Of a DNA stretch of 64,000 nucleotides, positions 6,955 to 18,308 are shown piece after piece (positions within the stretch are counted from its first letter, which is position 1; each line of letters starts with the position of its first letter). The translations under genes and the position numbers were made by a program. The notes under the pieces were generated by a model. That model made no database searches. It saw only the letters and a list, made by a program, of their open reading frames with translations, and had not been told where the DNA came from. The DNA lies in the NCBI GenBank assembly GCA_963804565.1, contig CAWDQV010000001.1, forward strand, positions 1,045,365-1,109,364. The letters run 5' to 3'. Origin of the DNA: Candidatus Dormiibacterota bacterium. Its GTDB lineage: Bacteria > Chloroflexota > Dormibacteria > Aeolococcales > Bog-877.

Positions 6955-7695
6955 ATGGCGGAGGTCGCGGCTCCCGCAGGTTCGGGCCGGAGGGTCCTCC
7001 TGGTGGAGGACGACGAGGCGGTCCGGATGACCTTGCGCTACAACCTGGCGGCGAGCGGATATGTGGTTCTCGAGGCGGCCAGTGGAACCAAGGGCCTGGA
7101 GCTTGCTCGCACCCGGGCGCCCGATCTGGTTGTGCTTGACCTGATGCTGCCCGAGCTGACCGGCGAGGAGGTCTGCCGGATCCTGCGCAAGGAATCTGAC
7201 GTTCCGATACTGATGCTCACCGCCCGGGGCTCCGAGGGTGAGAAGGTGCAGGGACTGGCCCTCGGCGCCGACGACTACATGACCAAGCCGTTTGGGGTCA
7301 AGGAGTTCGTCGCCCGAGTGGAGGCACTGATCCGCCGGGCAGAGCGTCCCCCGCGGCCATCCACCCGCCCCGAGCGTGTCCAGCTTGGAGACTTCGTCCT
7401 GGATGCCTCGGCCCGGCGCGTGGTGATCGCGGACCAGGAGGTGAAGATGAGCCCCCGGGAGTTCAACCTGCTCTTCTATCTGCTGGAGCACGCAGGCAAG
7501 GTGCACAGCCGTGAGGCGCTGCTGCGCTCGGTGTGGGGAGCCGACTTCCACGGCGACAACAAGACCGTGGCGGTACACATCCGATGGCTTCGCGAGAAGT
7601 TCGAGAACTTCCCCACCATGCCTTTCCGCATCAGCACCGTCTTCGGGGTCGGCTACCGCGTCGACCTGGCTCCCGGGATCACCGCCGAGAGGTGA
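6955..7695 (+). CDS. OmpR/PhoB-family DNA-binding response regulator (PhoB/RegX3-like)
   Basis: Receiver domain (LLVEDDEAV...DLVVLDLMLP...ADDYMTKPF) plus a winged-helix output domain (LTPREFNLLFYLLEHAGKVHSREALL). The start ATG overlaps the phoU stop. Confidence 0.9.
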   Translation: MAEVAAPAGSGRRVLLVEDDEAVRMTLRYNLAASGYVVLEAASGTKGLELARTRAPDLVVLDLMLPELTGEEVCRILRKESDVPILMLTARGSEGEKVQGLALGADDYMTKPFGVKEFVARVEALIRRAERPPRPSTRPERVQLGDFVLDASARRVVIADQEVKMSPREFNLLFYLLEHAGKVHSREALLRSVWGADFHGDNKTVAVHIRWLREKFENFPTMPFRISTVFGVGYRVDLAPGITAER

Positions 7696-7864: not shown

Positions 7865-8527
7865 GTGGTGGCTATGAGTTTCTTCAGCTCCAAGACGACG
7901 ATGCCGGCATCTGAGCGGTCCCTGCCCGGGCGCACCACGGAGATGGCCTTGAGCGGCAAGCACACCGTTCTGGGCAGCAACATCACGCCGCCATTCCCAG
8001 CTGGGCTCGAGCAAGCCATCTTCGGCCTAGGCTGCTTCTGGGGAGCGGAGCGGGACTTCTGGCAGCTGGCGGGGGTCTACACCACCGCGGTTGGCTACAG
8101 CGGCGGGTTGACCCCCAACCCGACCTACCGGGAAGTTTGCTCAGGTCAGACCGGCCACGCGGAGGTGGTGCTGGTGGTGTTCGACCCTGCCAAGGTGTCG
8201 TACCAGCAGCTGCTCAAGACCTTCTGGGAGAGCCACGACCCAACTCAGGGCATGCGCCAAGGGAACGACGTCGGGACACAGTATCGGTCGGTTATCTATT
8301 TCAGCAGCGAGGCGCAGCAACAGAGCGCCGAGGCGTCAAAAGAGCAGTATCAGAAGGCTCTCACCGACGCGAGGCTCGGACAGATCACCACCGAAATCGT
8401 GGGGGCGGGGCCGTTCTACTACGCCGAGGAGTACCACCAGCAGTACCTGGACAAGAACAAGAGCGGGTACTGTGGTGTGGGTGGAACCGGGGTCAGCTGC
8501 CCCGTAGGAATCCTGTCCGCGTCCTGA
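7865..8527 (+). CDS. msrA: peptide methionine sulfoxide reductase MsrA
   Basis: Catalytic motif GLGCFWGAE and the conserved YHQQYL C-terminal region. The start is uncertain (ATG at 7865 or a few codons downstream). Confidence 0.9.
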
Positions 8528-11022: not shown

Positions 11023-11685
11023 GTGCTGGCGTCGGTCCGCCAGGCTGAGAGCCTTCACGGTCGGCCGGAGGGGAGCGTAGCTCTGCTGCCGGTCACCAAG
11101 GGACACCCACCCGAGGTAGCCCGGCACGCGGCCGATCTGGGGCTCACCGAACTGGGAGAGAACTACCTCCAAGAGTGCGTCGCCAAACAGCGCCTTCTCG
11201 TGGACTCGGGGGTGGCCAACGTGCGCTGGCACTTGCTCGGGCACCTGCAGCGCAACAAGGCCCGCCCGGCCGCCCAGCTATTCCACCGGATAGAGAGCGT
11301 CGACAGCTTCGAGGTGGCTGAGCTGCTATCCGGATTCCGGAACGAGACTCATAGGCTCAAGGTTCTCTTGGAGGTCGAGCTGACAGGACTGCCAAAGCGC
11401 ACCGGCTTCCAACCGAGCCGCTTGATGGAAGAGATGCCCAGGCTGCTGCAGCTGGGCGGCATCGAGGTGGAAGGGCTGATGACCGTGGCCGCGCCGGGAA
11501 TGGCGCGTGAGTCCTTCGCCGCCTGCCGGGAGCTGGTCGAGCGGCTGCGCCATCTCAGCGGTCTCGCGCTGCCGATGCTCAGCATGGGCATGAGTGGGGA
11601 CTTCCGCGAGGCCATCGCCGAGGGCAGCACCGAGGTCCGGATCGGCAGTCTGCTTTTCGGCTCCCGGCCCCAGTTGCCCGACTGA
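11023..11685 (+). CDS. yggS: YggS-family pyridoxal-phosphate homeostasis protein
   Basis: LLPVTKGHP (the PLP lysine region), GENYLQE, and WHLLGHLQRNKA motifs. The start codon is GTG. Confidence 0.9.
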   Translation: MLASVRQAESLHGRPEGSVALLPVTKGHPPEVARHAADLGLTELGENYLQECVAKQRLLVDSGVANVRWHLLGHLQRNKARPAAQLFHRIESVDSFEVAELLSGFRNETHRLKVLLEVELTGLPKRTGFQPSRLMEEMPRLLQLGGIEVEGLMTVAAPGMARESFAACRELVERLRHLSGLALPMLSMGMSGDFREAIAEGSTEVRIGSLLFGSRPQLPD

Positions 11686-11699
11686 ACTAGTCCGCTTGC

Positions 11700-13247
11700 C
11701 TACCGCACCAGCACCGTCAGCTCCTGGTAGCCACTGGCACCGTTTGGGTAGGTATTCCCCTGCCCTGGCCGTTGGTAGTTGCCCCGCCCGTCGCGAGCGC
11801 GAACCCGCAGGGTGTAGAACCCGCTGGCCGGTCGCCAGGGGAAACTCCAAAGGGTCCAGGTGTAGGGCGAGAGAGGTGCTCTGATTTCCGCCTTGTTCCA
11901 GTTGCTGCTTCCATCCACGCTGATCTCCACCCGTGAGATTCCCCTGGTTCCGGCATAGGCGACGCCGGTCAAAAGATAAGTGCGTCCGGCGCTCAGGGAA
12001 CTGTTGCCGGAGGGGAAGTCGAACCTGGAGAAGATCTGGGGATAGGCGCCGGCGTTCCAGCCCTGCTGCTCCCAATATCCCAGGTAGGGATGGCCCGAGA
12101 AGCCGATGCTGGAGAGCCATTTGGGGTTCTTCATGCCGTAGTGGTCGACCACCAAGATCCGGGCCGGGAAACCGTGCAGAGCGGTCAGCGGTGCGCCATT
12201 GAGTCTGTCGGCCAGCAGCGTCGTCGGTGCCATCGCCTGGTCCAAGATCAGGCTTTCGGTGTAGCCGTCGACACAGCCGAAAACGACCTGCTCTGTCCCT
12301 GTCGGCACCCCTGCTCGCTGCAGCAGTCGGGACAGTTGGACGCCACGCCAGATGCCCGTGCTGATCAAGGTGCCGCCGATCGGGTTGGAGATGCACTCCA
12401 GAGTCTGGGTTTGGGTCAGGTGAGGCTCCGCGAGCAGGTCCTGGTAGCTGAGCGAATAGGGGTGAAGTCCCCCCACCTGGAGCCGCCAGGTTGCCGCGTC
12501 CACGGAGGGTGGTCCAAAGAGATCCTTGGAGACCACGTAGAAGTCGGCCGTGGGCGTGAGCCCGCTGGGTAGTTGGTCCCCCAGGCCGCCCGGGGAATTG
12601 CCCAGGCGCGGCAGTGGCGGGGAACTGGCGGTGAGCACGTCCAGACCCAGATAGCCGAGGGTGGCGACTCCCAGGATGCCGCCGGCGCCCGCCAGGAAAG
12701 TGCGCCTGGGGAATGTCCCATCGGCCGACCGACTCAGCCGCGCGGGCTGGCTGCCTCCTCGCTGCGGCATCCCCAGAAAGAGTTCGATGAGCCCGGTAAG
12801 GAGGAGCCAGTCCGCCAGGGCGGCGGGGGTGGATGGCACCGAAAGGGATCCTTCCCCGAGCGCGATCAGGGGCAGGGTAAGCACCCAGAGCCCAAGCGCC
12901 GGCAAGAGCCAGCGCACCAATGAGCGCCCTCGGCGAATTGCCGGGGCGGCGGGATAGGGGGCGACCGCCATCCAGCTCCACCCTGCCATCCATCGGCCCA
13001 GGGTGGCGCCCACCAAAATGACGAAGATCGAGGTCCCGAACAGGAGCAGCGGCCGGCCCCTTTCCTGGAGCGCGTCGATCAGCGTGCCGAAGACGCTTCC
13101 TGGGAGAAGCAGCGCCATCCCGTCCCCGATCACCTCACTGAGAAACGGCACGCCGAAGGTGATCCGCACCAAGAGCGTGGCACCCAGGGTGAGTCCCGCC
13201 GCGCAAGCCCCCAACAAGGCGCCGTTGGGCTGGCGTGGCTTGGTCAC
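11700..13247 (-). CDS. sulfite oxidase-family molybdopterin oxidoreductase with an N-terminal 4-TM membrane domain and an internal twin-arginine motif
   Basis: 515 aa. Residues about 1-165 form four hydrophobic helices. Then comes PRRTFLAGAGGILGVATLGYLG (an RRxFL Tat-like motif plus h-region). After that is a Moco-binding domain (LECISNPIGG...GVQLSRLL...HGFPARILVVDHYGMKNPKWL) and a C-terminal Mo-co dimerisation (Ig-like) domain. Confidence 0.75.
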   Translation of the reverse strand: MTKPRQPNGALLGACAAGLTLGATLLVRITFGVPFLSEVIGDGMALLLPGSVFGTLIDALQERGRPLLLFGTSIFVILVGATLGRWMAGWSWMAVAPYPAAPAIRRGRSLVRWLLPALGLWVLTLPLIALGEGSLSVPSTPAALADWLLLTGLIELFLGMPQRGGSQPARLSRSADGTFPRRTFLAGAGGILGVATLGYLGLDVLTASSPPLPRLGNSPGGLGDQLPSGLTPTADFYVVSKDLFGPPSVDAATWRLQVGGLHPYSLSYQDLLAEPHLTQTQTLECISNPIGGTLISTGIWRGVQLSRLLQRAGVPTGTEQVVFGCVDGYTESLILDQAMAPTTLLADRLNGAPLTALHGFPARILVVDHYGMKNPKWLSSIGFSGHPYLGYWEQQGWNAGAYPQIFSRFDFPSGNSSLSAGRTYLLTGVAYAGTRGISRVEISVDGSSNWNKAEIRAPLSPYTWTLWSFPWRPASGFYTLRVRARDGRGNYQRPGQGNTYPNGASGYQELTVLVR

Positions 13248-14063: not shown

Positions 14064-15761
14064 TCAGTGCCGAGCCGGCCGCAGATCCCGCAGCAGCAGC
14101 CGGGCCTGCCGCCTGCCACGCCAGGAGTCCACCTCCAACTCGAACAGGGCGTCGACCTTCCTCCCGGCTGGGAGGTGAGCGCGCAGGTGCGGCCGGCTGA
14201 AGCTGATCGCCTCGGCGCTTCCAGTGTCGTCAGAGAGGATCACCTTGAGATGGTCGCCGGTCCTCCCCAGGCTCTCGGTGCGAACCACGGTAAGCCCGCT
14301 GGCGCAGAGCAGGACAGACGGGTTTCCCATGCCGCAAGGCTGAAGAAGGAGCAAGTCCTCGGCTAATCGGAGGCTGCACTCCCGCAATCCCACCTCGGCA
14401 TCCACCCGAAAGGAGCGAAGCGGCTGGCGCTCCCCGAGTTGGTCCCGCACTGCGGCTACCAGGCGATTCTCAAACTCCTTTGCGGCTCCTTCGTCAGGGG
14501 CCAGGCTGAAACCGCCCGCCGAGATGTGTCCGCCGTAACTGATCAGGCGATCCGAGCACGCCCGGAGCGCGTCGACCACATTCAGTCCGGGAACTCCCCG
14601 GGCTGACCCCCTCCACTTGTCCCCGGTCCTGCTGTAGACGAAGGCGGGCCGACCGAACTCCTCGGCGAGGCGCCCGGCCACCAGCCCCACTACCCCGGGG
14701 ATGATCTCCGCTGAGCCGAGCGCGATCACCGGCAGCTCGTCGGGCAGCTCATCGACGATGACTCTGGCGAGCGTGAGCGCCGTGGATAGCGACGCCCGCC
14801 GAGTCCGGTTGAGTGACTCCAGTTTCGATGCGGCCTCGGCCGCCTCAACCGCATCGTCGGCAAGACAGCAGCGGAGGGCCAGGGCAGCGTCGTCCATGCG
14901 TCCCGCGGCGTTGATCCTCGGACCCAGGCCGAACCCCAAATCTCCACTCGTGGGAGTTCCGTCGACGCCCGCCAGTTTGGCCAACTGGACAAGCCCCCGG
15001 GGAGCGTGGTTCTCCCAGGCGGCGAGGCCTTGCCGCACCAGCCACCGGTTCTCGTCCTGGAGAGGCATCATGTCAGCCACCGTTCCCAGTGCCACCAGCG
15101 GCAGCTGGGCGGTCGCGGTGCCGTCGGCAAGGAGCCCGGCAGCCTCCATCGCGCGAACCAGCTTGTAGGCGACCCCGACGCCGGCCAGCCCCTTGAACGG
15201 GTACTGGTCGTCGGGGCGTTGGGGGTTGACAAGGGCATCCGCCGGGGCCAGCTCGACCCCGGCAGCACCATCTTCCCGATGCGGCAAGTGGTGGTCGGTA
15301 ATGATCAGCTTGAGCCCCTCTGGACGGTTCCTGGCCACCTCGACCGCGGTCGTGCCGCAGTCCACGGTGATGACCAGTCGCGCGCCCTGCCGGTGCAGTT
15401 CCACCAGCGCCTGGGAATTCAGACCGTACCCCTCGCTCTCCCGCTGGGGGATATAGGCGATCGGCCGGTGCCCCGCTGCCCGGAAGGCTCGAACCAGCAG
15501 GGCGCAGGCGGTCACACCATCCGCGTCGTAGTCGCCGTAGATCGCGATCTGCTCGTCGTCGGTCACGGCGGCGCGAATCAGCTCGACGGCGCGTCCCATA
15601 TCAGACAAAAGGAGCGGATCGAACTCCTCACCGGTGGCCACCGCCCGCGCTCGGGCGACCTCAGGCGAGCTGCCTCTCGATCGGGTCACTCGGTCAAATG
15701 CGGAAGCGGCCTGGTCCGCCTCGGCGCCGGGCAGCGTCCACTCCCTGGCGGCGCGTTTCAA
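14064..15761 (-). CDS. recJ: single-stranded-DNA-specific exonuclease RecJ
   Basis: DHH motifs (IAIYGDYDADGVTA...ITDHH) and a DHHA1 domain. 565 aa. Confidence 0.9.
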   Translation of the reverse strand: MKRAAREWTLPGAEADQAASAFDRVTRSRGSSPEVARARAVATGEEFDPLLLSDMGRAVELIRAAVTDDEQIAIYGDYDADGVTACALLVRAFRAAGHRPIAYIPQRESEGYGLNSQALVELHRQGARLVITVDCGTTAVEVARNRPEGLKLIITDHHLPHREDGAAGVELAPADALVNPQRPDDQYPFKGLAGVGVAYKLVRAMEAAGLLADGTATAQLPLVALGTVADMMPLQDENRWLVRQGLAAWENHAPRGLVQLAKLAGVDGTPTSGDLGFGLGPRINAAGRMDDAALALRCCLADDAVEAAEAASKLESLNRTRRASLSTALTLARVIVDELPDELPVIALGSAEIIPGVVGLVAGRLAEEFGRPAFVYSRTGDKWRGSARGVPGLNVVDALRACSDRLISYGGHISAGGFSLAPDEGAAKEFENRLVAAVRDQLGERQPLRSFRVDAEVGLRECSLRLAEDLLLLQPCGMGNPSVLLCASGLTVVRTESLGRTGDHLKVILSDDTGSAEAISFSRPHLRAHLPAGRKVDALFELEVDSWRGRRQARLLLRDLRPARH

Positions 15762-15863
15762 TTCATTCTGGACAGATGCGGTCGCGCTTCACGTGGCAAG
15801 GGCTCACCCGGCTTCGATTCTAGCCCGCCCACCAGGGGCTTCCCACAGAGGACACTTGGCGGT

Positions 15864-16361
15864 GTGAGGCGGAGCAAATCAGGTCGCCCTCCGGAGACCG
15901 AGGAGGAAGCTCGGGCCAAGGCGGAGCGGCGCTACCGCAGCCTCCAGGTGTCGACCTTCTGCCTGCACGCGCTGGCTTGGATCCTGGTCACCTTCTACGC
16001 GACCGATTACCTCCCCCCGCTCTTCGTCAAGTTCACCATCGGAGTCAACGAGCCAGCGGTAGCCCAGTATCTCGCCGGCTACCTCATCTTGAGCGCGATC
16101 TGCCTGGTGCTCTCGATCAGCTTCGGCTGCTTCTACGGGCGACCAATCAGCACCAGCCGCTACTCATGGCGCTGGTACGTATTTCCGGTGATTCTGGCAC
16201 TGGTTCTGATCCCGGCCCAGGGCTCCAACGAACTCTTGACCAGGGCAGTTGAGGCGGTGTGCCTAGTGCCGGGGATATGGCTCGGGGTTGCAGTCAGCCG
16301 GCCGTGGCAGAGACGGCGACTCCGGCGACGTCCCGCTCGAGGTCGCGTGGCCGCGCCGTGA
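15864..16361 (+). CDS. small hypothetical membrane protein (about 4 TM helices, basic C-terminal tail)
   Basis: This is the only strongly GC3-biased, hydrophobic reading frame in the 530-bp gap between the recJ start and the fbiC end (STFCLHALAWILVTFYATDYL..., four predicted helices). A GTG at 15864 is preceded by GAGGA. An alternative GTG lies at 15948. The 3' end overlaps fbiC convergently by about 67 nt. Confidence 0.4.
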   Translation: MRRSKSGRPPETEEEARAKAERRYRSLQVSTFCLHALAWILVTFYATDYLPPLFVKFTIGVNEPAVAQYLAGYLILSAICLVLSISFGCFYGRPISTSRYSWRWYVFPVILALVLIPAQGSNELLTRAVEAVCLVPGIWLGVAVSRPWQRRRLRRRPARGRVAAP

Positions 16362-18308
16362 CCGGCCGGTAGAGCGTGTCGCGCTCCCGGGGAGTCCGTC
16401 CAGCACCCCGGATAGCGGCCTCGATATCCCAGGGATCGAGGTTCTGGCCATGGTCCGCCCCGCTCATCCGGGTGATCGACTCTTCCATAAGGGTTCCCCC
16501 GAAGTCATTTGCTCCCCAACGCAGCGACTCGGCGACTCCCTCGGGTCCCAGCTTCACCCAACTGGTCTGAATGTTGGGAATGTCGCTGCCGAAGTAGAGC
16601 CGGCAGAAGGCGGTGAACCGCAGGGAATCCTCGAGGGTGAGCGGCTCGCGAATGCCGAAGTACTTGCCCAGGGTGTTGTGCTGGACCTGGAATGGCAGCA
16701 GCACGAACTCACTTATCCCACCCGTCTCGCGCTGAAGGTTACGAATCACCTCCAGGTGCTGAAGTCGATGCCAGGGGTTCTCGATATGTCCGTACATGAT
16801 CGTCGAAGTCGTGGGGATTCCCACTCGGTGGGCGGTCTTGACGATCTCCACCCACTCCGAAGTGGTGAGTTTCTCGGGGCAGAGAATCCGGCGCACCTCC
16901 TCGACCAGGATCTCCGCGGCGGTTCCCGGCATGGTGCCCAAGCCGGCATCTTTCAACTGGCGTAGGACGTCTTCGACCGATCGTCCGGCCTCTTGGGAGA
17001 TGTAGCGAATCTCCTCCGGCGAGAGTGCGTGAAGGTGCAGCGTCGGCCAGCGCTCCTTGATCTCCCGGAAAAGCTGGTCGTAGAACCCGAGGTTCAACTC
17101 CGGGGTGAGTCCGGACTGCATGCAGATCTCGGTGGCCCCGCGATCGACCGCGTCCTCGATCTTGGCAAAGACGGTGTCGTGGTCATGGAAGTAGGCGCCC
17201 TTGGCGTTGATCGAGCTGCGCCGGAACCCGCAGAACGAACAGCTGCCGACGCAGACGTTGCTGATGTTTACGTTGCGATTGATCACGTAGGTGACCGTGT
17301 CCCCGACCAGTTCCTGGCGGAGCTTGTCGGCCGCCGGCTGAAGATCGGCGAGCGACTCCTGGTAGACGGGGAGTCTCTCCTGGAGGTGGTAGCCGAGGGT
17401 TCGGGCCTTGGCGGCCAGCTCCACTTCGCTGGGCCAATCGAACGCTGGGCTCACCGAGTCGCCATCCAGGGATATCCCACCGAGGTCGGTCGCTCCGGCC
17501 TCGACGAGTGATGGCCAGTTATCGAAATTGAGGTTCGGCGGAACCTGGACTGCGACATCGCTTGGCAGGATTGCCCGGGCCATCTCCACGGTGGCCCGCA
17601 CCGTCTCGGGGTCAGGGGCTGGCTGATCGGCCATCGGCGTGTCGGGCTTGGGGATGAAGTTCTGGACGATGACCTCTTGGATGTGCTGATGGCGCTGGTG
17701 GCAGTCCCGGATCAGTTCCAGGGCGTGCCGCCTGTCGTCCTCAGTCTCGCCAATCCCAACCAGGATGCCCGTCGTGAATGGAATCCCCAGCTCCCCGGCC
17801 GCCTCCAGGTGCGCCAGTCGCTCCTGATAGCGCTTGCCACCGCCCATGGCATGGGCCCGGATCTCGTCGGTGCCGGTCTCGAGCATCAGGCCCATCGATG
17901 CGTTCCAGGGCTGGAGGCGGGCCAGGCTGGCGCGCGAGAGCAGGCCTACATTGGTGTGGGGCAGCAGCCCGAGGCTCATCGCCCGGCGACACACCTCCTC
18001 GACCAGGTCGACGAACGCGTCCTCGTCGCGCAGACCGAGGTCGGGAAGGCGCCAAGGTTGCTCTCCGGCCATGATCAGCACCTCGCGGCAGCGCAGTCGG
18101 CTGGCCTCGGCCAGGTGGTGGTCGACCTCGGCCACGCTGATCAGCCCCCCTGATCCTTGCGGTACTCGCAGTAGCCGCAGCGTCGGTAGCAGCGGTAGGT
18201 GATGTCCACCGTGTAGCTGCGGCTGAAGGTCAGGTAGTGGGCGTGGTACTCCGGCTGGTGGCGAGTGGCGACGCCAGGCTGAACTGGGACGATCGCCTCA
18301 TAAGCCAT
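16294..18308 (-). CDS. fbiC: FO synthase FbiC (CofG/CofH fusion; 7,8-didemethyl-8-hydroxy-5-deazariboflavin synthase), interrupted by a 1-nt frameshift near 18137-18143
   Basis: The N-terminal fragment (18141-18308) carries the CofG radical-SAM motif TYRCYRRCGYCEY. The 613-aa body (16294-18135) carries the CofH radical-SAM motif CVGSCSFC plus CofG/CofH C-terminal regions. The two parts are in different frames, separated by a C6 (G6 on the coding strand) homopolymer. Adding one G would restore ...RKDQGGLISVAEVDHH.... A further frame change near 18310-18360 is possible. Confidence 0.8.

Follow-up and report, generated by a model that had tools for sequence, protein, structure and literature searches.

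A widespread polytopic molybdoenzyme of the sulfite oxidase fold with a probable internal Tat signal-anchor

Introduction

How could a folded molybdoenzyme reach the outer face of the membrane when four transmembrane (TM) helices precede it in the same polypeptide? The question is raised by one gene in a 64,000-nucleotide stretch of Candidatus Dormiibacterota DNA, here called the window. An earlier note, made from the sequence of the window, described a sulfite-oxidase-family enzyme fused behind four TM helices with a twin-arginine (RR) motif in the middle of the protein, and proposed that Sec and Tat act in succession on it, as in actinobacterial Rieske proteins. In the Rieske protein Sco2149/QcrA, an internal RR motif follows Sec-inserted helices and marks a domain that is exported by Tat (Keller et al. 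2012, J Cell Biol, PMC3471235). A second precedent is Sco3746 (Q9L0V6), a polytopic heme-MoCo protein that is dual Sec/Tat-targeted (Tooke et al. 2017, eLife 6:e26577, PMC5449189). Sco3746 consists of four Sec TMDs, an RR-preceded TMD5, and a MoCo domain whose export needs both the RR and Tat; exchange of RR for KK abolishes export, and membrane insertion persists without Tat (PMC5449189). Experiments on Sco3746 identified low hydrophobicity of the Tat helix and positive charges C-terminal to that helix as determinants of the Sec-to-Tat hand-over, and set 8 residues as the minimum for the loop that leads from the last Sec helix into the Tat helix (PMC5449189). Homologues of Sco3746, which was interpreted as an MsrQ-MsrP-like fusion, have been described in several phyla; its native TMD5 acts as an anchor, and release of a reporter needed an engineered cleavage site (PMC5449189).

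Results

Architecture of the protein

The gene is a complete ORF (GTG start, stop at 11700-11702) that encodes 515 amino acids. From N- to C-terminus, the protein comprises four TM helices with an outer-face hairpin between TM1 and TM2, the pair R181-R182, TM5, a linker, a molybdenum cofactor (Moco) domain, and an Ig-like domain. The features, with the evidence for each, are as follows.

11700..13247 (-): whole gene; ORF with GTG start, close homologues aligned
13155..13223 (-): TM1, residues 9-31, with predicted cytoplasmic N-terminus; hydropathy and AlphaFold2, K3 and R5 upstream
13053..13142 (-): predicted outer-face helical hairpin, residues 36-65, non-spanning; AlphaFold2 helices 36-47 and 50-60, conservation
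12978..13052 (-): TM2, residues 66-90; hydropathy and AlphaFold2
12852..12923 (-): TM3, residues 109-132, after a predicted cytoplasmic Arg-rich loop (R105, R106, R108, R112); hydropathy, AlphaFold2, and charges
12771..12833 (-): TM4, residues 139-159, with D146 and E155; hydropathy and AlphaFold2
12702..12707 (-): twin arginine R181-R182 in P-R-R-T-F-L; sequence and invariance in homologues
12630..12698 (-): TM5, residues 184-206, Gly/Ala/Thr-rich h-region and predicted signal-anchor; hydropathy and AlphaFold2
12561..12629 (-): Pro/Ser/Gly linker, residues 207-229, of low confidence; pLDDT <50 at 216-221
12048..12560 (-): Moco-binding domain, residues 230-400; Pfam PF00174, HMM and Foldseek matches to SorA and chicken sulfite oxidase (SO)
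12393..12395 (-): Cys285, predicted Mo ligand; alignment to chicken SO C185 and SorA C104
11703..12047 (-): Ig-like Mo-co dimerisation domain, residues 401-515; Pfam PF03404 (partial), HMM alignment, and Foldseek

Hydropathy analysis places the membrane spans at residues 9-27 (TM1), 66-84 (TM2), 113-131 (TM3), 142-160 (TM4), and 184-202 (TM5). An AlphaFold2 model (pLDDT 84.4, pTM 0.77), in which helices occupy residues 9-31, 36-47, 50-91, 109-132, 139-159, and 181-206, contains both the TM helices and the RR helix. The two approaches agree on the four N-terminal helices of the earlier description, to which the model adds the non-spanning hairpin. An identical protein is present in public data, and the closest relatives come from Candidatus Dormibacterota.

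We considered whether the real start lies further downstream, which would leave an ordinary N-terminal Tat signal. This possibility was rejected: close homologues align from residue 1, and the N-terminal 180 residues are conserved across phyla. M160, the only in-frame methionine near and upstream of the RR, is replaced by leucine in close relatives.

The twin-arginine motif and TM5

The RR codons (agg-cgc, 12707-12702) lie within residues 179-203, FPRRTFLAGAGGILGVATLGYLGLD. Here P-R-R-T-F-L-A (180-186) matches the Tat consensus (S/T)-R-R-x-F-L-K; the Nitrolancea hollandica version of the motif reads SRRRFLK. All 22 aligned homologues (36-79% identity) keep both R181 and R182, and at all 80 genome loci surveyed, whose homologues extend down to about 35% identity, the RR is present with a hydrophobic stretch after it. 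This conservation exceeds chance. Among the 80 homologues, position +3 after the RR is mostly F or L and position +4 mostly L. The loop from TM4 to the RR spans about 21 residues (160-181), which exceeds the 8 needed in Sco3746, and is Arg-rich, with five K/R; homologous loops are variable in length but long, and within them only the RR is invariant, the remaining charges varying from one homologue to another.

The h-region that follows, AGAGGILGVATLGYLGL, is moderately hydrophobic and rich in Gly, Ala, and Thr (Kyte-Doolittle 19-residue mean 1.66). By crude Hessa sums, which are not values of the dGpred server, TM5 is the least hydrophobic helix of the family (median 3.77, versus 0.81, -0.25, 0.48, and 2.59 for TM1-4). 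The contrast is less clear in the window protein, whose TM5 (1.99, versus 0.81, 1.23, 1.97, and 3.93 on the same scale) stands out less from the Sec helices than the family median does. K or R occurs just C-terminal to TM5 in 69% of the homologues; at this position D, N, or E is found in the window protein and in the sequences closest to it (D203 in the window protein, with the first positive charge at R214). Low hydrophobicity of the helix and a positive charge behind it are the two hand-over determinants established for Sco3746 (PMC5449189). At family level they speak for a Sec-to-Tat route; in the window protein itself, D203 and the smaller contrast in hydrophobicity speak against it.

The linker behind TM5 varies in length among homologues. 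It contains a possible signal-peptidase-like site between LTA and SS, after A207, and P210 is conserved in 60 of 81 sequences.

Two relatives from candidate phylum ANGP1 (loci L056 and L074) carry the Moco and dimerisation module behind a plain N-terminal RR signal, and no N-terminal membrane domain was found in any frame of either locus. These unfused forms indicate that the RR helix is a bona fide export signal that was made internal by fusion. Taken with the invariant RR and the conservation of the N-terminal domain across phyla, they show that the long start is real and make it very probable that the internal RR helix acts as a Tat signal-anchor. We assume that the host genome encodes a Tat system; a crude motif scan of the 64 kb window found no Tat component and no further Tat signal, which is uninformative at such a length.

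The N-terminal membrane domain

Net charges of +2 at the N-terminus, +3 in loop 2-3, and +4 in loop 4-5, with outer loops near zero, fit the positive-inside rule for a predicted N-in/C-out topology. The outer hairpin likewise has a net charge of about zero and carries the motif LLPGxVFGxLIDxLQExGRP. Apart from P49 (kept in 73 of 75 homologues) and F53 (70 of 75), both in this motif, no residue of the N-terminal domain is nearly universal, and the hairpin is the part of the domain that is conserved best. The membrane domain is free of histidine (none in residues 1-261), and the homologue alignment revealed no conserved histidine across the family of the window protein. We conjecture that the hairpin is a docking or scaffold element for the enzyme rather than a cofactor site.

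No family in Pfam or NCBIfam matched the N-terminal domain. It is nonetheless conserved as protein across phyla, as a survey for this extension that returned 628 clusters at 50% identity makes clear, and in all sequences of adequate length the Moco module follows it in the same polypeptide. Among 24 short matches inspected, none was clearly a complete stand-alone protein; those of sufficient length continue into the Moco domain or appear frameshifted or truncated.

The catalytic module

The remainder of the protein has the SorA/SUOX-type domains that the earlier note had assigned to it. Pfam detects PF00174 (Oxidored_molyb) at residues 247-392 (E 8e-35) and PF03404 (Mo-co_dimer) at 421-463 (E 3e-6). 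Foldseek aligns about 330-345 columns with SorA and chicken SO (E from about 1e-25 to 1e-22, target TM-score 0.70), across both domains. HMM comparison with sulfite-oxidase proteins gives E 2e-50, and the HMM alignment to chicken SO reaches residue 511. The Moco domain contains the motifs FYVVSKD, TLECISN, DGYTES, HGFPAR, YGMKNPKW, and YWEQQGW. Cys285, which corresponds to C185 of chicken SO and C104 of SorA, is invariant, a figure to be read with the fact that this residue formed part of the pattern used in the genome survey.

Mapping of the active site through sequence-based HMM alignments to SorA and chicken SO gave a different picture for the residues that handle sulfite. R138 of chicken SO (R55 of SorA) aligns with V239 or, in the gapped chicken SO alignment, with K241, and the two alignments leave this position ambiguous. 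The loops that bear R190 and W204 of chicken SO are deleted, Y322 (Y236 of SorA) is replaced by W397, which is invariant (81 of 81), and R450 corresponds to the variable N502 (N, D, or S among homologues). Scores against NCBIfam models fall far below the cutoffs for SorA (104/600), SoxC (89/420), SorT (65/570), and MsrP (31/207). Judged by these alignments, the enzyme is probably not a sulfite oxidase. Sulfite, which the earlier note had listed as a candidate substrate, is unlikely because the sulfite-binding arginines are absent.

Distribution and gene neighborhood

A pattern search that included the Mo-ligand Cys placed the family in at least 576 species-level genomes, among them that of the cultured nitrite oxidiser Nitrolancea hollandica. 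The genes around 80 loci were compared by all-against-all clustering. Synteny is conserved at the clade level only, with RecJ, dienelactone hydrolase, YggS, NrdR, and aldo-keto reductase as neighbors in Dormibacterota. No conserved redox-partner gene emerged, and neither a cytochrome nor a SorB-like gene lies nearby at the 80 loci; likewise, neither the protein nor its neighbors show a PF01794 or cytochrome b-like domain. JGI labels homologues "YedYZ catalytic subunit". Literature searches on the family itself, on Rv0218, and on membrane-bound SO-family enzymes returned only Tooke et al. 2017 as relevant.

Discussion

Our analysis suggests, with a good measure of likelihood, that the window protein is a polytopic extracytoplasmic molybdoenzyme, probably assembled by Sec and then by Tat, which is tethered to a His-free four-helix domain and acts on a substrate that is probably not sulfite. 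Dual Sec/Tat targeting, as the earlier note had proposed, is the best-supported reading of the even number (four) of upstream helices, the N-in/C-out charge pattern, a TM5 that is the least hydrophobic helix of the family, and the unfused relatives with Tat signals. None of the three outcomes that the note had named as counting against it was observed: the N-terminal helices are predicted, the RR is conserved, and the long N-terminus is kept across the 628 clusters. We propose the following model. Sec would insert TM1-TM4 co-translationally, leaving the N-terminus and loops 2-3 and 4-5, both rich in Arg, on the cytoplasmic side, and would not retain the weakly hydrophobic TM5. Moco is inserted into enzymes in the cytoplasm, and the two-domain SUOX-fold module would fold and take up Mo-molybdopterin there. 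Known extracytoplasmic Moco enzymes are Tat substrates, and a folded, Moco-loaded domain of 300 residues cannot traverse Sec. The Tat receptor would then recognize the RR before TM5 and translocate the folded module, a step for which export would depend on Tat, and TM5 would be left behind as a fifth helix with N-in/C-out orientation. The mature enzyme would stay attached to the conserved His-free four-helix domain, with Cys285 as predicted ligand of Mo in an active site that apparently lacks the cationic sulfite pocket.

Could the RR be nothing other than positive-inside residues of a five-helix protein inserted by Sec/YidC, with no role for Tat? The general abundance of arginine in the loop before TM5, with its five K/R, and the lack of visible Tat genes within the 64 kb window would be in keeping with such a protein. 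Against it, two arginines alone are invariant whereas the other loop charges vary, the F/L-L that follows them matches the Tat consensus, the same RR helix serves as the N-terminal signal of the unfused relatives, and it is established that a folded Moco-loaded domain of this size is unable to pass Sec. In Sco3746, moreover, the RR to KK exchange abolishes export (PMC5449189), and we regard an arrangement without Tat as very improbable. A separate question is whether the RR-TM5 segment is cleavable, so that the polypeptide is a polyprotein-like precursor from which a cut near A207 frees a soluble or wall-retained enzyme while a domain of four or five helices remains as a separate membrane protein. 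The small-x-small motif L205-T206-A207 before S208, similar A/G-x-A/G patterns together with the conserved P210 in many homologues, the long, variable, low-confidence linker, and the resemblance of the unfused ANGP1 forms to ordinary Tat precursors all speak for cleavage. We nevertheless consider it unlikely: Pro-rich sequence near the site often disfavours cleavage, the hosts are mostly Terrabacteria, in which a freed enzyme could be lost, and the N-terminal domain is fused to the enzyme in all sequences of adequate length, which argues that the two stay physically joined. The natural TMD5 of Sco3746 is likewise an anchor, into which a cleavage site had to be engineered (PMC5449189).

As to the reaction catalyzed by the tethered enzyme, its closest matches in sequence and fold (SorA, chicken and plant SO, and SorT) are built from the same two domains, and the Cys that ligates Mo is conserved along with HGFPxR and K..KW, motifs that bind Moco. 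It might therefore be a genuine membrane-tethered sulfite oxidiser, either of the plant type, which uses O2 as acceptor without heme and requires no heme partner gene, or of the SorA type with an unlinked cytochrome c. This is quite unlikely in view of the missing equivalents of R138, R190, R450, W204, and the catalytic Tyr322 (with an invariant Trp in place of the Tyr), an identity to SorA of only 25-27%, the low SorA, SoxC, and SorT scores in NCBIfam, and the lack of a SorB-like cytochrome gene near the 80 loci. That the protein reduces S- or N-oxides in the manner of MsrP/YedY, with oxidised Met in envelope proteins as one conceivable substrate, is doubtful as well, if somewhat less so; such an enzyme might be tethered as its host has no closed periplasm and might receive quinol electrons through the membrane domain. 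The non-cationic, Trp-containing pocket predicted here appears closer to reductase-type pockets, such as that of YedY, than to those for oxyanions. The JGI label of the homologues points the same way, as do the OmpR-type response regulator and histidine kinase that adjoin the gene at 7 of the 80 loci, an arrangement that recalls E. coli hprRS-msrPQ. The proven fusion Sco3746 was itself read as MsrQ-MsrP-like (PMC5449189).

For the tethered, probably Tat-exported enzyme, it is tempting to go one step further. The His-free domain may, tentatively, be a new type of membrane partner that couples Mo to the quinone pool without heme or delivers lipophilic substrates borne by the membrane. On that view the clade, widely distributed among Dormibacterota, Chloroflexota, Acidimicrobiia, and Armatimonadota, would represent a new enzyme activity, and Sec/Tat dual targeting of Mo enzymes would have evolved independently in a second family.

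To our knowledge, dual Sec/Tat assembly has been demonstrated so far in a small number of protein families. The hand-over rules that concern Tat-helix hydrophobicity and flanking charges can now be put to a natural test in an independent, widespread family whose membrane domain is not homologous and whose Moco module belongs to another class, and its close Dormibacterota members should be especially useful because they have no flanking positive charge. The analysis also defines a large, uncharacterised SUOX-fold clade that has lost the sulfite-binding arginines and has no recognizable electron-transfer partner; the labels "sulfite oxidase" and "YedYZ catalytic subunit" are therefore unfit for inferring sulfur metabolism in the host phyla.

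Comparison with known systems

With SorA of Starkeya novella, chicken and plant SO, and SorT, the window protein has in common the two-domain SUOX fold (Foldseek E 5e-25, TM-score 0.70) as well as the Cys that ligates Mo and the motifs for Moco binding; the bacterial SorA and SorT forms are exported by Tat. Unlike these enzymes, to which it is 25-27% identical, the window protein lacks the sulfite-pocket residues discussed above, has neither a heme domain nor a SorB partner, carries a polytopic N-terminal tether, and scores below the NCBIfam equivalog cutoffs. In MsrP-MsrQ of E. coli (YedYZ), too, an SO-family Moco enzyme exported by Tat works together with a polytopic membrane protein; in the window protein, enzyme and membrane partner are fused. 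MsrQ, however, is a heme b protein whereas the membrane domain of the window protein has no heme ligands, and MsrP, with which similarity is confined to about 70 residues, has no dimerisation domain. With the Rieske proteins Sco2149/QcrA, the window protein shares an internal RR preceded by Sec-inserted helices, even in number, as well as the predicted Tat export of a cofactor-bearing globular domain. The Rieske proteins differ in having two upstream helices, an Fe-S cofactor, membership in the bc1 complex, and a highly conserved loop before the Tat helix, which is variable in the present family.

The closest parallel is Sco3746. The TMD sequence of Sco3746, taken from the eLife supplement, was compared by BLASTP and Pfam, followed by a full-length homologue. 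The membrane domains show no significant similarity (the top BLASTP match covers 12 residues, E 0.068). Sco3746 has conserved histidines for two b hemes, weak similarity to cytochrome b561, and a weak Pfam match to Ni_hydr_CYTB, whereas the window domain has no His and no Pfam match; in the full-length homologue (P0270), PF00174 alone was detected. Sco3746-type proteins are 412-434 amino acids long and end after the Moco domain, whereas the window protein, at 515 amino acids, adds the dimerisation domain, and the Moco cores are only 30% identical. On account of the non-similar, His-free membrane domain and the extra dimerisation domain, membership in the Sco3746 family was rejected. Yet the two share four upstream TM helices, an RR directly before a weakly hydrophobic TM5, a C-terminal PF00174 domain that lies (in the window protein, by prediction) outside the cell, occurrence in Actinobacteria and Chloroflexi, and what appears to be the same assembly logic. 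The earlier note had called the architecture unusual for a sulfite-oxidase homologue, a view that gives way before this precedent and the number of genomes that carry the window family alone. The architecture is not new because it was shown experimentally in 2017 for the five-TMD Sco3746, a member of a different protein family (PMC5449189); the family described here is a widespread, uncharacterised variant of a known design and introduces no new principle.

Anatomy of the protein

The molybdoenzyme gene lies 39 nt downstream of a dienelactone-hydrolase gene and is convergent with a YggS-type gene. Its product comprises an N-domain (four TM helices and an outer-face hairpin), twin arginines (RR), TM5, a linker, and the Moco and dimerization domains.

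Features of the molybdoenzyme
11700–13247, minus strand: ORF with GTG start, 515 amino acids
Residues 9–27, 66–84, 113–131, 142–160, and 184–202: hydrophobic spans (hydropathy analysis)
Residues 39–57: amphipathic stretch (hydropathy analysis)
Residues 9–31, 36–47, 50–91, 109–132, 139–159, and 181–206: predicted helices (AlphaFold2)
R181-R182: twin arginines, in the context FPRRTFLAGAGGILGVATLGYLGLD
Residues 247–392: Oxidored_molyb (Pfam, E 8e-35)
Residues 421–463: Mo-co_dimer, partial (Pfam)

The AlphaFold2 model, for which 22 homologues served as input (pLDDT 84.4, pTM 0.77), places a disordered linker after helix 181–206, followed by a beta-rich C-terminal part. Separate modeling of the N-terminal 181 residues yielded an identical helix set. 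Foldseek and a PDB HMM search aligned residues ~226–511 with SorA, chicken and plant sulfite oxidase (SO), SorT, and SoxC (E 5e-25, target TM-score 0.70, 25–27% identity; HMM E 2e-50). Together with the ORF, hydropathy, AlphaFold2, and Pfam results, these alignments confirm the anatomy proposed in the earlier note, including the Ig-like dimerization domain. A 555-amino acid ORF on the same strand but in a different frame (11326–12993, minus) overlaps most of the gene; its Arg/Pro/Gly-rich composition is what a shadow ORF in 65% GC DNA typically shows, and it does not represent a gene.

Conservation and distribution

A search of 5.8 billion proteins returned an identical copy (encoded on a 2.39 Mb contig), near relatives labeled Candidatus Dormibacterota, and full-length homologues from Acidimicrobiales and Chloroflexota with identities reaching down to ~36%. 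Across 22 diverse aligned members, R181, R182, P49, F53, and the Mo-ligand Cys285 never vary. A profile built from just the N-terminal 182 residues matched 628 clusters (50% identity representatives, E ≤ 1e-3), in which complete proteins are 490–600 amino acids long. Of 24 short matches inspected, those of sufficient length either continue into the Moco domain or appear to be frameshifted or truncated; no clearly complete stand-alone N-domain protein was among them. Scanning a single genome for each species identified at least 576 loci of the family; in the best 80 of these, RR precedes a hydrophobic stretch in 80/80 and the N-domain is present in 75. Members occur in the cultured Nitrolancea hollandica (motif SRRRFLK) and in a complete Ktedonobacterales genome.

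Close relatives have Leu in place of M160, the only in-frame methionine near and upstream of RR. The helix predictions, the retention of RR (22 of 22 aligned members as well as all 80 loci), the wide occurrence of the N-domain, and the Leu at position 160 therefore dispose of three doubts attached to the original proposal: the N-terminal helices are predicted as transmembrane, orthologues keep the motif, and a downstream start is rejected in favor of the long protein.

Two further observations concern database entries. P0137, a 258-amino acid metagenome protein, runs from TM1–TM3 of the N-domain straight into the Moco domain at YGMKNPKWL and lacks ~250 residues, among them RR, TM5, and the Mo-ligand Cys; it probably reflects misassembly or gene decay. 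MAG genes 47–82% identical to the molybdoenzyme gene carry the labels Micrarchaeaceae/Micrarchaeia archaeon (loci L007, L013, L028), Verrucomicrobiia (L033), Nanopelagicaceae (L025), and Acidiferrales (L008, L072). L007, L008, and L013 (78–82% identical) also have Dormibacterota synteny. All seven are probably mis-assigned Dormibacterota bins.

Topology and targeting

Across the family, net charges are +2 at the N-terminus, +3 in loop 2–3, and +4 in loop 4–5, and about 0 in loops 1–2 and 3–4. This positive-inside pattern predicts a cytoplasmic N-terminus, four spanning helices, a cytoplasmic RR, and an external C-terminal domain. Two loci from Bacillati bacterium MAGs of candidate phylum ANGP1 (L056:4779–5894 and L074) encode the same Moco and dimerization module, marked by FYVVSKN, ECISN, and the invariant Trp, in proteins of 357–371 amino acids. 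Their RR lies at position 17–30 as a plain N-terminal Tat signal, and a search of every reading frame of both loci yielded no N-domain. This identifies the RR helix as an export signal made internal by fusion of a four-helix module in front of it.

TM5 is the least hydrophobic helix in the family (median crude Hessa sum 3.77; TM1–4: 0.81, −0.25, 0.48, and 2.59), and K/R directly follows it in 69% of members. Such low hydrophobicity and flanking positive charge make Sec release the last helix to Tat (Tooke et al. 2017, PMC5449189). The window protein is less typical (TM5 sum 1.99, flanking residue D203). No Tat genes were seen within the 64-kb window. Moco insertion takes place in the cytoplasm. 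Given the charge pattern, TM5, the ANGP1 forms, and cytoplasmic Moco insertion, sequential Sec-then-Tat assembly is the best-supported mechanism we infer: Sec would place TM1–4 and release TM5, which Tat would take over via RR. The dual Sec/Tat targeting proposed earlier is probably right.

Active site and membrane domain

Active-site equivalents by HMM alignment to SorA and chicken SO (family frequencies over 81 sequences)
Chicken C185 / SorA C104 (Mo ligand): C285, retained
Chicken R138 / SorA R55: V239 when aligned to SorA without gaps (Val in 77/81), or K241 when aligned to chicken SO with gaps (Lys in 73/81)
Chicken R190 and W204: carrier loops deleted in the family
Chicken Y322 / SorA Y236: W397 (81/81)
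Chicken R450: variable N/D/S

Judged by these alignments, the cationic sulfite or nitrate pocket appears to be absent. Its predicted loss, together with NCBIfam equivalog scores far below all cutoffs (SorA 104/600, SoxC 89/420, SorT 65/570, MsrP 31/207), makes sulfite an unlikely substrate. Electron exchange may involve O2, the acceptor in plant SO, or else an unlinked partner, or quinones via the membrane domain.

The only near-universal N-domain residues are P49 and F53; D58, G50, and P66 are common. All five lie in the outer-face hairpin that joins TM1 to TM2, which suggests that they act in structure or docking and do not form a cofactor site. Clustering of neighbor genes at 80 loci revealed synteny at the clade level only, an adjacent two-component system in 7, and no cytochrome or other redox-partner gene. 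A function of the membrane domain as a heme-free module for coupling or substrate delivery in a new Mo-enzyme activity seems rather unlikely. The analysis defines a large uncharacterized SUOX-fold clade in which the active site is remodeled and the membrane module carries no heme.

Neighboring genes

Next to the enzyme gene of L056, and transcribed divergently, are genes for an OmpR-type response regulator and a histidine kinase; a related kinase adjoins it in 7/80 loci. The window itself contains:

6955–7695, plus strand: OmpR-family response regulator
7865–8527, plus strand: cytoplasmic-type methionine sulfoxide reductase MsrA
15006–16361, plus strand: 451-amino acid ORF mostly overlapping recJ on the opposite strand
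16294–18135, minus strand: 613-amino acid radical-SAM protein with a CofH/MqnC C-terminal region

The first two lie 3–5 kb from the molybdoenzyme gene, and MsrA holds the same relative position in Dormibacterota contigs L003 and L004. The 451-amino acid ORF is probably an artefact; its C-terminal ~186 amino acids (~15801–16361, RSLQVSTFCLHALAWILVTFYATDYLP...) correspond to a small membrane protein of several helices that matches no Pfam family and is retained upstream of recJ at 10 Dormibacterota loci. The radical-SAM protein looks like a fused CofG/CofH-type FO synthase, which would suggest F420 biosynthesis in the organism.

Comparison with Sco3746

Dual targeting was established as a principle for the Streptomyces Rieske protein (Keller et al. 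2012, PMC3471235). A genome search for internal RR, a single TMD, and a cofactor domain yielded Sco3746, which has five TMDs, RR ahead of TMD5, and a MoCo domain at the C-terminus; its homologues occur in actinobacteria, firmicutes, chloroflexi, and euryarchaea (Tooke et al. 2017, PMC5449189). In that study, the five-TMD topology was demonstrated, reporters required Tat and RR for export, and membrane integration was independent of Tat. Since Sco3746 and its homologues are already published, the suggestion that such an architecture would be unusual among these enzymes is unsupported.

The window protein does not belong to the Sco3746 family. BLASTP of the window N-domain against the Sco3746 TMD sequence, taken from the supplement of Tooke et al. 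2017, gave nothing significant (best match 12 residues, E 0.068). [quoted passage not shown] 2017, PMC5449189), whereas the window N-domain has no Pfam match and the protein contains no His before residue 262. Across the family, the N-domain has no conserved His, Cys, or Met. Sco3746-type proteins (412–434 amino acids, PF00174 only) end directly after the Moco domain, and their 30% identity to the window protein is confined to the Moco core. The same design has therefore arisen here on a membrane domain that is not homologous to that of Sco3746, together with a catalytic module of another subclass. The window protein is a further, independent example of the published principle rather than a new one.
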